Made by a program: the position numbers and the translations under genes
Shown: piece after piece, positions 13,149 through 17,861 of the stretch
How positions within the stretch are numbered: the stretch's first letter is position 1
Layout: each line of letters starts with the position of its first letter
From: a virus
Reading direction: 5' to 3' (one strand)
DNA: 64,000 nt
IMG/VR virus record: IMGVR_UViG_3300005096_000137
Coordinates: 84,428-148,427 of that record
Notes under the pieces: model-generated
The model's database searches: none
What the model saw: the letters and a program-made list of their open reading frames with translations, nothing else
What the model was told of the DNA's origin: nothing

Positions 13149-13657
13149 TGAATACCATAAATAGCCACTCAATTGTCCAGGTAATTGCGGAGAGGTTCCA
13201 CAAAGGTCAGCCAGTGCTCTTTGAACGCCTCAAGGACATGGTTCCTTGCCATTCTTCTTTTGACAAACTGACTGACGCCCTGGGTTGTAGTGAGCAACCA
13301 TGTGCTAGTGTGCTCCCCACTGATGAGAGAACGTTCAAGGAAGCAGCATTCGGTATGACATTTCATTCGGTGGGAGAGCCAACCGGCGGGCATCCCTCTT
13401 GTTTTGAATACACACGGAGCCAGCAATCTCTGGAGGAGATGGTGGCCCCCTACCACACCAAGTTCGTGACCTATTGCAAGCAACACTTTCAAGCAGCCCA
13501 GAATGCCAGGACTGTCAGTAGCAACATTGTTTCGATACTCACCCTCTGGGGGAGTGCAGTTTGGATGGACAGGACGGGTAAGATTGTTACTGACAACCAG
13601 TTCCGTGGTATCCTGAACATGAACGTGTTGACAGATAATTTACTTGACAGGCAGTAG
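13148..13657 (+). CDS. Hypothetical protein, paralog family A (3/3)
   Basis: As above. Confidence 0.6.
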   Translation: MNTINSHSIVQVIAERFHKGQPVLFERLKDMVPCHSSFDKLTDALGCSEQPCASVLPTDERTFKEAAFGMTFHSVGEPTGGHPSCFEYTRSQQSLEEMVAPYHTKFVTYCKQHFQAAQNARTVSSNIVSILTLWGSAVWMDRTGKIVTDNQFRGILNMNVLTDNLLDRQ

Positions 13658-13672
13658 TCTATGGTGTACACT
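13644..13672 (+). promoter_or_regulatory. Sigma70-type promoter of the Tat-signal operon
   Basis: TTGACA-17-TACACT, then GGAG RBS before ATG 13700. Confidence 0.75.
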
Positions 13673-13699
13673 TGAGAGTAAACCTGTTGGAGACTTCAA

Positions 13700-14635
13700 A
13701 TGCTTGATCGTCGTGTATTTCTAAAGACCCTAAGCGCTGGTGCAATTGCGGCTATCCATGCAGCTAATGCAGCTAATGCAGCTAATGCAGAGACACCCCC
13801 GCTACCTCACTCTCACCCACTCCCACGTCCACAGTTTATCTGCCTTCCAAAGCGGTTCCCGGAGCCCCCAAGACAAATTCACATAGGTCCTCGAAAAGGA
13901 AAGCATGCGCCACGCCTCTGGCAAGTCCCACAAGGTTGGTTTAAGTATCGGGACCATAAACTACTGGGCACTTGTGGCGCTGGCAGTACCACAGAAGAGG
14001 ACATCGGGACCTTTACAGCAGGTCCCGGAGAAGACAAGCTTCAGTACCGTTTTGGCAAGACCCTGGAGTGCGACGGTTTTATGCGAATAGGTGCCAGTCA
14101 CACTGGTTGGACAAATCCCATATTCCTCCTGGCAGTTCATGACGGACCTGTTGTTGAATTCGGGTGTTACGGTCGCCAACCCGGCGATCTGGCGTTGGAA
14201 TTGGGGTCCCGTCCATACTATCACCCCTGCTCGTTTGTCTCAGTGTTCCGACCCAATAGTCCACTACCTGATGATGGTCACTACGAGACCACGATTGATT
14301 GGGACCTAGGTTCCCAGAAGGCAGACCCATACAAAACTGCCCTTCGCTTGAATTTTGCATACGAACATTACAGTCTTTCACGATCCCAGCGGATGGCTGA
14401 TTTCGTGATGCCTCCTCGAATGCTGGCTTTTGAATATGACAATGATGCGTATGATGCAATTATGTATGCTATGGATAGTTACAAGGTTGCTCCCACCCAG
14501 GGCTTCCGGATATCAAGCCACGGGTACAATTTCCAACTCTCTACCCGAAATCCACCAGTCCTGGCTCAGAATTACGCAATACAATCAGCCAGTGCCATGC
14601 GAGGCAGTCCAGTATGCTTAGACGAGACTTCCTAA
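13700..14635 (+). CDS. Tat-signal protein 1
   Basis: MLDRRVFLK, Ala-rich h-region, ANA cleavage site, Pro-rich linker. Confidence 0.75.
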   Translation: MLDRRVFLKTLSAGAIAAIHAANAANAANAETPPLPHSHPLPRPQFICLPKRFPEPPRQIHIGPRKGKHAPRLWQVPQGWFKYRDHKLLGTCGAGSTTEEDIGTFTAGPGEDKLQYRFGKTLECDGFMRIGASHTGWTNPIFLLAVHDGPVVEFGCYGRQPGDLALELGSRPYYHPCSFVSVFRPNSPLPDDGHYETTIDWDLGSQKADPYKTALRLNFAYEHYSLSRSQRMADFVMPPRMLAFEYDNDAYDAIMYAMDSYKVAPTQGFRISSHGYNFQLSTRNPPVLAQNYAIQSASAMRGSPVCLDETS

Positions 14636-15207: not shown

Positions 15208-15217
15208 GGGATTTCAG

Positions 15218-16048
15218 ATGGACAGACGCGGATTTCTAGGCAAGCTTGGTATTGGGGTAGCAGCGGCTGGTGTTTTGGGCCGTGAGGCTATCGCGCGGAT
15301 TCCCAAGGAGACCAAGAAACTTCCCAAGGAGCTATTACTACCTCCCGAGAAACTCACCTTGGCTGAGGTGACCACTGCTGAGGTGACCACTGCTCTCAAG
15401 AGTAATTTCCCGGGGTTTGTGGACCAGGTTTCAAATACCGCGACAAAAGTTCCCCGCCGGTTGCCCACTCACATTGCCCACCACCTCTACCCAGACAATG
15501 GTTTGTACCTCCAATTGATGAACTGCGATCACCATGTCCCTAACAAACGTTACGGTAAATACCGATCGGGAGAATACGTGATCCAGAGTATCAATGACCC
15601 ACCTGGCTTACAGGTCCTTGGTTCAGAGTTTACCATTGATGGCGCTGCCATGGCAGGTTATGTGGCGGTACACAGTCCAACGGGGATTATATCCGAGGAC
15701 CTAAAGAGTCCATTGTTCACTGATTTCCAACTCATGGCCAAGCGGAACCCACTCGACTATCATGTTGGCTGTGTCATGTGGTTAGCCCTGAGGAATGGTC
15801 CAGTGGTTGCATATAACTTCTTGAACAAAGCCCAACATCGGTGTGCCCGTACCCTTCGAGGCTCTCAGGACGTTGCATATCCTTGGTGTCTACAATCACG
15901 GGAATTTCGCAACAATGTGGGTGTGAATCACATTCGCTTTTATTACATGGCTGTGGCTGGAACTACACACGAACCCCGGACTACACCCGAATCAATACGT
16001 GAGAGATTTGTGGAAGAAGGTATGTCTAACCCTGGAGAATTACGATGA
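15218..16048 (+). CDS. Tat-signal protein 3
   Basis: Start reassigned to ATG 15218: MDRRGFLGKLGIGVAAAGVLGREAIA. Confidence 0.75.
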   Translation: MDRRGFLGKLGIGVAAAGVLGREAIARIPKETKKLPKELLLPPEKLTLAEVTTAEVTTALKSNFPGFVDQVSNTATKVPRRLPTHIAHHLYPDNGLYLQLMNCDHHVPNKRYGKYRSGEYVIQSINDPPGLQVLGSEFTIDGAAMAGYVAVHSPTGIISEDLKSPLFTDFQLMAKRNPLDYHVGCVMWLALRNGPVVAYNFLNKAQHRCARTLRGSQDVAYPWCLQSREFRNNVGVNHIRFYYMAVAGTTHEPRTTPESIRERFVEEGMSNPGELR

Positions 16049-16848
16049 GTTTGAATCGACGCGGCTTTCTTGGATTCCTTGGACTGGGTGCAGTTGCTGC
16101 TGGAGCAGCATCTATTCCAGCCAAAGCTTTGGCGGGCGCCAAGGACGTGCTCCCTGAGTCTTTATTGACAGAGGTCTCAACCCCTGAGGCTCTTGTGCCC
16201 CACCAAGGGGCTCACTTAGACCCCACCACGGATTACCCTCACATACTCCGCTTGGTCCATGGGAATAGCCATTGGGCACGCCGTGGGCAGGCTGAGGCTG
16301 GGGACTGGATTACCCATGCGTGGAGGTCCAAGCAGTGTGTCTCCCATGGTCGCCGTCTGAGGTGCATCGGGTTTCGACATTTGGGCGATGTCGCCTTCCA
16401 CTTCCACGAGCTGGAAGCAGGCACTGTGACAGACAAGTACACAGATCCGGATAGTCCAGAGTTCAAGGAGGTTGTCCAGAAGGCAGGCGAGTCCCGAGTC
16501 CCTTATGGTGTCAGTCATTATGCCTGGGGACCCCGCTATTCCATAACCCTTGTAGGTATTGGAGCTGTCGAATTCACGGGGTTGAACCGGAGCAACCGGG
16601 GGTTTATGCGGCAGGCGATGGGCAAGCGGACCTCTTGTGACGCATTCACACTGGTGTCCCAAAAGGTGGTTCACTCAACTGGCGGAACCTGGTTTAAGCC
16701 TACGATGGAATTCATTGATTCAAATGAGAGTAAGCTGTGGACACCCAGCTTAACTCAGCGAGTTGGAAAGAGTCAAATCTCCAAGTTCGCCAACATGTCC
16801 TCAACCCAGTTTGAATCAATGTATCGTGATGACAGGGATATGAGATGA
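16045..16848 (+). CDS. Tat-signal protein 4
   Basis: MSLNRRGFLGFLGLGAVAAGAASIPAKALA. Confidence 0.78.
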   Translation: MSLNRRGFLGFLGLGAVAAGAASIPAKALAGAKDVLPESLLTEVSTPEALVPHQGAHLDPTTDYPHILRLVHGNSHWARRGQAEAGDWITHAWRSKQCVSHGRRLRCIGFRHLGDVAFHFHELEAGTVTDKYTDPDSPEFKEVVQKAGESRVPYGVSHYAWGPRYSITLVGIGAVEFTGLNRSNRGFMRQAMGKRTSCDAFTLVSQKVVHSTGGTWFKPTMEFIDSNESKLWTPSLTQRVGKSQISKFANMSSTQFESMYRDDRDMR

Positions 16849-17861
16849 ACAACCGACGTGATTTCTTAAAGACATTGGGACTTGGAGCCGCTGGGGTTAC
16901 CCTGGTGGGTCGGCAGTTGTTGGTAGGGTCTCCTAAGGGTGTCCCCTCAGTCAAACTCCCACCAATTAGGGCTCTGGGGAGTGACTCACTTCCGGTTGAT
17001 CCCCCGAGGATTGAACTTCCACCAGTTGGAATGACCTACCCTACTCAGGATAACCTACTGCCCTCAATGTGGGCAGTCAGTGCTCAGAGACTCCTTGAAC
17101 AGAATCTGGTCATGGGTAATCTGGTTCACCGGGATTGTAGCGACGAGGTGTCACAGTTTGGGGACATAATCAATTTGAGAAGCCCTGGCTGCAATATCCC
17201 AATACCACTGGACCAGCTTTTCTCCACACACTTTGTCATCAGAGATGGGGATGCCTCCAAGTCCTTTCAAGAATTAAGGGAGCAATACCTCCGCCCGAGT
17301 ATCCAAAAGCTTGCTCGCCAGATTGACCAGGCACTCATTGGGCAAGCTGTCCACTACACGGATAATACCGTTGGGGGTCAGTACTCTCTCTATGGTGCTA
17401 ATGCAACCAACACCATCATTGATGCTCGCCGGAAACTAAACGATAATAGGGCACCCCTCTCTGACCGTAACCTGGTGTTGTCGACTGCCAGCTCGCAAGC
17501 CCTAAAGTGTTCAGAGATACTCCCGGTCATTCGGGATGGGGGTGGGTATCCGCCTCAAATCACTGCTCTCGAAGAAGCACGTCTGGGAAAGTACATTGGC
17601 TTCACCTGCTGGCATGTTCCTGATATGCCGTGGCATATCAACCTGGGTTTCCACCCTGACACAATGGCCCTGGTCACCCGACCATTACCTCTGGCCCTAC
17701 CTAGACTCCCCATCCGCTCAGGTATTGGTGTTCACAACAACCTTGCACTCCGGGTGTCAATGATGTATGACGTGCAGACGTCTGGGACACGGATAACCAC
17801 GGATGTGTTGGCGGGTATTGGTGTTCTTGACACTAACTTAGGCGTTATCATAGAAGGCTAG
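16845..17861 (+). CDS. Tat-signal protein 5: P22-coat (HK97-fold) capsid protein homolog
   Basis: MNNRRDFLKTLGLGAAG, then LEQNLVMGNLVHRD..FGDIINLR.P, YLRP..QKLARQID, DARRKLNDNRAP..R.LV, NLGFH...ALVTRPL, LRV...YD......DVL.G...LD. Confidence 0.75.
   Translation: MNNRRDFLKTLGLGAAGVTLVGRQLLVGSPKGVPSVKLPPIRALGSDSLPVDPPRIELPPVGMTYPTQDNLLPSMWAVSAQRLLEQNLVMGNLVHRDCSDEVSQFGDIINLRSPGCNIPIPLDQLFSTHFVIRDGDASKSFQELREQYLRPSIQKLARQIDQALIGQAVHYTDNTVGGQYSLYGANATNTIIDARRKLNDNRAPLSDRNLVLSTASSQALKCSEILPVIRDGGGYPPQITALEEARLGKYIGFTCWHVPDMPWHINLGFHPDTMALVTRPLPLALPRLPIRSGIGVHNNLALRVSMMYDVQTSGTRITTDVLAGIGVLDTNLGVIIEG

Follow-up and report, generated by a model that had tools for sequence, protein, structure and literature searches.

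The last 64 kb of the 148,427-bp IMG/VR viral contig IMGVR_UViG_3300005096_000137 (the window; 64,000 nt, analyzed over its whole length) contain an operon of five consecutive phage genes, here called A to E, each of which opens with a leader resembling the twin-arginine (RR) signals of the Tat export pathway. Positions are those of the window unless marked as genome positions, which are obtained by adding 84,427. All five genes lie on the + strand. Gene A (13700–14635) is an open reading frame (ORF) of 311 aa that starts with MLDRRVFLK; its RR leader, with ANA repeats, takes up approximately residues 1–30 and is followed by a proline-rich linker, a diverged OB-type domain similar to single-stranded DNA-binding proteins (SSBs), and a C-terminal extension. 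Gene B (14614–15207; ORF of 197 aa; start MLRRDFLK) is the shortest of the set and joins an RR leader to an SSB-like passenger, as does gene C (15218–16048; 276 aa), for which the start was taken at MDRRGFLG within a longest ORF running from 15116. Gene D (16045–16848; ORF of 267 aa; start MSLNRRGFLG) has an RR leader and an SSB-like OB-fold passenger. Gene E (16845–17861; ORF of 338 aa; start MNNRRDFLK) carries its RR leader in a proline-rich leader and linker stretch of ~65 aa, ahead of a trimmed copy of a P22-type major capsid protein.

The genes are tightly packed, with overlaps of 22, 4 and 4 nt and one gap of 10 nt between neighbors. Four of them have GGAG-like ribosome sites, and AGGGG stands 10 nt 5′ of the start of gene C. 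A sigma-70-like promoter, TTGACA-17-TACACT, was located before gene A on the + strand (13644–13672) by a consensus scan, with 10 of 12 positions matching. An earlier note, made from the letters of the DNA, had described five tightly packed RR-leader genes behind this element, and the ORFs, the consensus scan, and matches to the Tat model TIGR01409 all bear this out. The note also called the promoter dedicated, a word that goes further than the element itself, which is a consensus match only and one of 12 TTGACA-N16-18-TAyAmT sites genome-wide, all on the + strand. With that consensus match as the basis, early transcription of A–E by the host polymerase would fit the arrangement.

Tat character of the leaders

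The motif RR-x-[FLM]-L lies within the first 9 residues of all of A–E and of three genes elsewhere in the genome. In hmmscan with TIGR01409 (cut-off, 16.7 bits), C, D and E scored above the cut-off (18.0, 18.2 and 20.4 bits, respectively) and B below it (14.0 bits); for gene A only another Tat model, TIGR02811, was matched, just under its cut-off. PF10518 (cut-off, 22.7 bits) gave 21.8 bits for E and 16.1 bits for B, both below. A six-frame TIGR01409 scan of the whole contig returned exactly eight matches, which are A–E and three genes upstream of the window, T1, T2 and T3; seven of the eight were above the cut-off, the sole exception being gene A at 14.6 bits, and gene C reached 22.7 bits. 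Scanning for the RR motif gave 7 matches in the real genome and 0 in each of 30 shuffles. The shuffles and the six-frame scan rule out a chance origin of the leaders. At 54 per Mb (8 per 148 kb), TIGR01409 matches are far denser in the phage than in two planctomycete genomes (~4 per Mb).

The h-regions span 13–17 residues in most leaders and, as delimited, as many as 24 in A and B, with a mean Kyte-Doolittle hydropathy of 0.6–1.6; being so weakly hydrophobic, they are too weak for a membrane anchor. A lysine or arginine follows the h-region in 15 of 17 family leaders. Small-x-small sites were read by eye at ANA/ET (A), AVA/GL (B), AIA/RI (C) and ALA/GA (D), which agrees with the AxA cleavage site claimed earlier for the first four genes; E offers only LVG/SP. 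The proline-rich linkers that had been ascribed to all five hold for A, B and E and are less marked in C and D. Compared with PDB sequences, the RR-family profile has its best matches in the leader, mostly to precursors of enzymes that Tat exports, with the NapA signal peptide among them. By every sequence test applied, the leaders of A–E behave like genuine Tat signals.

Origin of the passenger domains

Paralogy among A–D is weak at the sequence level, with ~25% identity and blastp E-values of 9e-6 (A–B), 4e-6 (C–D) and 2e-4; a mature-domain profile matched A, B and C at 5.9e-31, 3.5e-41 and 2.7e-50, respectively. Homologs outside the genome were sought with a profile of the mature parts of A–D, from which the leader was left out, against 1.84 billion representatives. 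This search retrieved 10 further proteins of 202–278 aa from other metagenomes, 9 of which start with RR-x-F and a Gly/Ala h-region; the tenth begins inside the h-region, and its start was probably mis-called. The earlier note had named homologs lacking the RR motif as counter-evidence; since 9 of the 10 distant homologs keep the leader even when found by a leaderless profile, A–D withstand that check and the leader is a conserved trait of the A–D family. Gene D is the member nearest the outside family, with 37% identity to the homolog P0015.

Structure prediction with AlphaFold and Foldseek, proposed in the earlier note for the mature domains, gave a confident OB-fold domain for gene D. The AlphaFold2 model, built from a 14-sequence alignment, has pLDDT >90 over residues ~62–230, with leader and linker disordered; the Atlas single-sequence model of D was unusable (pLDDT 0.28). 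The best solved structure was the recombination directionality factor (RDF) gp3 of phiC31 (9teh_I; Z 6.8 over 141 aa; rmsd 4.6), followed by the OB folds of BRCA2, RPA and SSB, and Foldseek also found T4 and RB69 gp32, weakly. In BFVD, the D model matched uncharacterized phage proteins of ~250 aa at E 1e-6, as well as an annotated RDF and SSBs. In Atlas, it matched viral clusters assigned partly to Pam3_Gp34 or DUF5895 (TM 0.56/0.60 over 174 residues) and Gp3-like RDFs (TM 0.46). Experiments have established the TG1 RDF, a protein similar to phiC31 gp3, as an SSB whose OB fold is gp32-like, and the pattern of structural hits obtained for D (BRCA2, gp32, RPA) is the pattern published for that protein (PMC11795197). 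The fold of the A–D mature domain is common to the phiC31 gp3/TG1 gp25 RDF family (Gp3-like, PF18897; Pam3_Gp34, PF23977; DUF5895). A–D differ from that family in having an export leader and linker and in lying outside the replication module. In the A–D family alignment, conservation is only partial at the His/Cys positions interpreted as a gp32-like zinc site.

The phage also encodes a leaderless paralog of A–D, P0025 (genome 38015–38767; L002:18015–18767), which matched the mature-domain profile at E 3.9e-7 and aligned in HHalign with 95.6% probability (E 1.3e-8). It adjoins a ParB-like gene and a primase, that is, a replication module, and homologs with ~39% identity occur in planctomycete prophage-like regions (L044–L046). 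No bacterial-type SSB was found on the contig, and P0025 is probably the SSB-type replication protein of the phage. The mature parts of A–D belong to no family in Pfam, PHROGs or NCBIfam. DNA and protein searches with the operon and with D against 50,697 cultured-phage records found nothing, and the family alignment, used in a word-based homolog search, brought back no more than three of its own input sequences. From the model of D and the leaderless paralog, we consider the A–D passengers to be diverged paralogs of the phage's own OB-fold protein of the gp32/phiC31-gp3, single-stranded-DNA-binding type, with DNA binding predicted.

Gene E matched PF11651 at 1.2e-10 (41.2 bits; gathering score, 24) and phrog_283 at 5.6e-26. 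Eight relatives could be aligned, seven of ~470 aa at 33–40% identity and one of 375 aa at 25%, and none of the eight, all leaderless, carries an RR leader. E aligns with P22-type (HK97-fold) major capsid proteins over the end of the N-arm, the P-domain, the spine helix and the A-domain, with 40 invariant columns. Relative to these proteins, its N-arm is replaced by 65 residues of leader and linker, its E-loop is ~20 aa shorter with the tip missing, and an insertion domain of ~180 aa is absent. The AlphaFold2 model of E was poor (9 sequences; pLDDT 49), and a search of viral contigs with E gave no related loci. Together with the leaderless paralog of A–D, the capsid homology of E supports the earlier proposal that the phage has put export tags on diverged copies of its own cytoplasmic proteins.

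Unlike P22-type capsid genes, E sits among accessory genes and a methyltransferase and not in a head module. Its two located capsid relatives are in or adjoin head-tail modules, one of them (P0004) in a normal head-to-tail module, and in two collinear relatives the true capsid gene is directly upstream of the connector genes, which here lie at genome 3943. No terminase, portal, full capsid gene or second capsid homolog was found on the 148-kb contig. The 5′ end of the contig (genome 1–938) is inside an open reading frame, and the 3′ end (window ~63930–64000) is a tandem repeat of CATCCAATCCGGACAGTC units. Given these edges and the lack of head genes, the head module most likely lies past one end of the contig, with E as an additional copy in trimmed form. 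Although CheckV estimates completeness at 100%, the record is probably partial, and the phage is a large tailed phage of at least 148 kb. The deletions in E and its location among accessory genes rule it out as a working capsid protein.

The three further RR genes, found by the six-frame TIGR01409 scan, are T1 (genome 67899–68690), T2 (genome 69219–69986) and T3 (genome 71872–72507). They form a block (genome 67899–72507; L004:7899–12507) between an exonuclease/methyltransferase block and the ParB-like gene. None belongs to a family in Pfam, PHROGs or NCBIfam. In its mature part, T3 shows homology to the C-terminal portion of a 375-aa tail-module protein (genome 5136–6263; blastp 7e-7), which by its position is a putative major tail protein. 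The likeness of T2 to the capsid protein extends over 29 columns only, at 49% probability, and homology is not claimed.

That eight proteins, a homolog of capsid proteins among them, have a common N-terminal leader might suggest a role inside the virion, in which the leader would be a capsid-targeting sequence removed by a head protease, A–E would be internal head proteins injected with the DNA, like the internal proteins of T4, and any resemblance to Tat signals would be a secondary matter. A cargo that binds DNA would suit such a scheme. The genes, however, are found in regions of early DNA metabolism, 3′ of a sigma-70-like promoter, and not in a structural module, and the leader has all three regions of a Tat signal, including features relevant only to export and signal peptidase. 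Neither a head protease nor a head module was found on the contig, and we regard virion cargo as a very improbable function.

Genomic context, relatives and inferred host

Directly 5′ of gene A, three tandem paralogs on the + strand (12152–13657) were recognized by alignment as a family of 160–180 aa with an 'IVQIQ' N terminus (..S.AIVQIQ..), for which no Pfam, PHROG or NCBIfam match was found. Directly 3′ of gene E is an N6/N4 DNA methyltransferase (17869–18945, + strand; PF01555, 6.9e-18), whose Cys-rich C-terminal tail contains weak CxxCH-type matches. A further DNA methyltransferase, with an NPPY motif, lies at 11630–12155 behind a second TTGACA-17-TACACT site at 11596, and the two methyltransferases flank the paralog arrays. 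Farther along the window (55075–62650), five near-identical promoter cassettes of the pattern ..GAGAATTCT..CTTGACAAT.GCGC..N..GTATACTTC.AGTGTTCAAGCAA precede small ORFs and are among the 12-site sigma-70-like set. Positions 44759–45499, 48829–49755 and 51229–52764 encode two paralogous HNH endonucleases and an RNA ligase of the RtcB type.

In metagenomic relatives, the RR-family gene is surrounded by early genes and genes of nucleotide metabolism and has a DNA methyltransferase beside it. Its neighbors are DNA methyltransferases, DHFR, ThyA and ribonucleotide reductase (RNR), and a methyltransferase is found 3′ of it in the P0015 contig, L008 and L009 as well. The 'IVQIQ' family gene is directly 5′ of the RR-family gene in L007 and L009, and L009 repeats the order seen in the window: BCS1-like ATPase, PhoH, RNR, 'IVQIQ' gene, RR gene, methyltransferase. 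A Ro60/TROVE gene adjoins the RR-family gene in L010, and one is also present in the phage at genome 76166–77740. In L008 (769–2287), two tandem RR genes have nearly identical leaders (MKRRDFLKKFG.G) and different passengers, which suggests that the leader may move between genes as a module. From its sequence context, A–E would be an early accessory operon.

This setting bears on the decoy model, which goes back to the earlier note: the tagged copies would bind host immune sensors that recognize SSB, capsid or tail proteins and remove these sensors from the cytoplasm through Tat hitchhiking, or else would jam TatBC. SSB, capsid and tail proteins are classes reported as abortive-infection triggers, and the passenger types (SSB-like, capsid and, for T3, tail-like) fit them. 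The genes also stand among DNA methyltransferases, which are counter-restriction genes, and divergence as high as that of the four paralogs (~25% identity) is common in counter-defense genes. A look-alike of a trigger, however, would be expected to activate a sensor rather than silence it, sequestration needs no export, and Tat has size limits and proofreading. A decoy function appears quite improbable.

The host of the phage is probably a planctomycete. Prophage-like regions of Planctomycetota are its closest kin at the genome level. The best capsid matches in species genomes were in metagenome-assembled genomes of Planctomycetota, two from Thermoguttaceae and one from Pirellulales. Two planctomycete prophage-like contigs are collinear with the phage and have in common with it the tail module, ParB-like gene, SSB-like paralog, helicase, exonuclease, polymerase, ligase and methyltransferase. 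In these collinear relatives, no RR-leader genes, 'IVQIQ' family or BCS1-like gene were found, and the T1–T3 block is missing. TatC is present in all three planctomycete genomes with related prophage-like regions, and Tat signals are numerous in such genomes; no TatA is encoded on the phage contig.

A BCS1-like membrane AAA ATPase (4984–6252, + strand) is encoded 7.4 kb 5′ of the operon and comprises an N-terminal transmembrane helix, a BCS1_N domain, an AAA domain and a lid (PF08740, 1.2e-29; PF00004; PF25426). PhoH (6188–7027) and then RNR (7018–9687) follow on its 3′ side. In two related genomes the BCS1-like gene occurs together with RR genes; three relatives that have no RR genes lack it. 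Searches of viral contigs with the BCS1-like protein and a BCS1 alignment gave no related loci. A BCS1 gene is carried by 265 phage records. Three other large phages (80–348 kb), all BCS1-carrying, have no Tat leaders above the TIGR01409 cut-off, which rules out a general link between BCS1 and Tat-type leaders. Here, the ATPase may have a link to the operon.

This ATPase gives some ground for a different reading, in which the RR leader would dock the passengers at TatBC or the cytoplasmic face of the membrane, or would stay as an uncleaved Rieske-type anchor, so holding the DNA-binding, capsid-like and tail-like domains at a membrane-bound replication or assembly site, where the BCS1-like ATPase may insert or extract them. 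Membrane-anchored DNA-binding proteins that organize replication are known, such as phi29 p16.7. The ATPase is itself membrane anchored and accompanies the RR family in L009, and the collinear relatives, which have no RR genes, lack it. One RR-family member also gives a weak match to the Rieske PetC signal-anchor model, and E has no clear cleavage site. Phage BCS1 has been proposed to move folded proteins in membrane-proximal assembly (Iyer et al., 2021; PMC7824862). The h-regions, however, have neither the length nor the hydrophobicity that a stable anchor needs, and A–D and most homologs have the basic residue and small-x-small site of cleaved signals. The co-occurrence amounts to a count of just 2 versus 3 among related genomes, and the three other BCS1-carrying phages show that BCS1 does not imply substrates of this type. 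On balance, we consider tethering unlikely.

Predicted export and comparison with known systems

Tat exports proteins that are already folded. The most likely explanation of the sequence data, to which we assign a probability of roughly 0.5, is that A–E are real Tat substrates that would be exported to the periplasm; it is judged the most likely because the leader keeps, across distant homologs, features relevant only to TatC recognition, avoidance of Sec and cleavage by signal peptidase. In this explanation, each protein would combine a host-type Tat signal, a flexible and often proline-rich linker, and a domain recycled from a cytoplasmic phage protein. The proteins would be made early from the sigma-70-type promoter and fold in the cytoplasm, host TatBC would recognize them by the RR-x-F-L motif and export them to the periplasm, and at least A–D would be cut by signal peptidase at the small-x-small site.

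What the proteins would then do is more speculative. We favor, by analogy with phage proteins that act at the envelope, a role there in superinfection exclusion or sensing: A–E might, for example, bind DNA or virion parts of incoming related phages, and the four fast-diverging paralogs A–D would then reflect an arms race. A broader notion is possible if doubtful, namely that some phages routinely use Tat signals to turn duplicated core proteins (SSB-type, capsid, tail) into periplasmic 'self-mimic' effectors. Such effectors would block or sense related phages that superinfect, or would disarm defenses linked to the envelope, in this lineage perhaps together with a phage-encoded Bcs1-type translocase of folded proteins.

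Several points weigh against the export explanation. In hmmscan, A and B stay below the curated cut-off for Tat signals, and E, which has no clear AxA site, could remain anchored. The structural match of D to SSBs is moderate (Z 6.8, TM about 0.56). Pfam PF23977 and PF19247 were without a match on the contig, where the PF19247 control matched nothing either, so that the family assignment of A–D rests on the fold and the leaderless paralog. The G+C content of the phage is 50%, versus 57–63% in the planctomycete relatives from which the host is inferred. There is also no evident task for an SSB-like or capsid-like domain in the periplasm.

The earlier note knew of no described phage system with this architecture, and full-text literature searches likewise found none, nor any paper on a phage that fuses Tat signals to copies of its own replication or virion proteins. 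Three elements are new here: the family of SSB-type passengers whose leader is conserved, the presence of as many as eight tagged genes in a single genome, and the connection to planctomycetes. If export is real, domain recycling combined with a portable leader would be a new source of phage envelope effectors and would put the Tat pathway to a new use in infected cells, and it would offer an entry into the phage biology of the Planctomycetota, whose periplasm is unusually large. The A–D family makes a clean test case, as its members are small and well folded, the leaderless paralog can serve as a control, and the leader is kept in distant homologs.

Set beside bacterial Tat signal peptides (TIGR01409/PF10518; NapA, TorA and Rieske-type anchors), the leaders have the same RR-x-F-L-K/G n-region, weakly hydrophobic Gly/Ala h-region, basic c-region and small-x-small site. 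They differ in being phage encoded, in having passengers without cofactor-enzyme ancestry and in their far greater density, and export is a prediction here. Mitochondrial Bcs1 translocates the folded Rieske protein, which in bacteria is the task of Tat; the phage likewise pairs a full BCS1-type membrane ATPase with proteins that have Tat/Rieske-like leaders. Bcs1, however, is not known to read an RR motif, and the link in the phage consists of co-occurrence in two related genomes.

For the proposed role at the envelope, the closest parallels are T4 Imm/Sp, T4 RI, TP-J34 Ltp and T5 Llp. Ltp is a lipoprotein that blocks the tape measure protein of the incoming phage. RI, an antiholin of T4 located in the periplasm, is believed, according to one published account (PMC8385771), to sense the periplasmic DNA of superinfecting phages. 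All of these are early phage proteins that an N-terminal signal sends to the envelope, as proposed for A–E, but their signals are of the Sec or lipoprotein kind and none of them duplicates an SSB or capsid protein of its own phage, whereas A–E would employ Tat signals on copies of just that sort.

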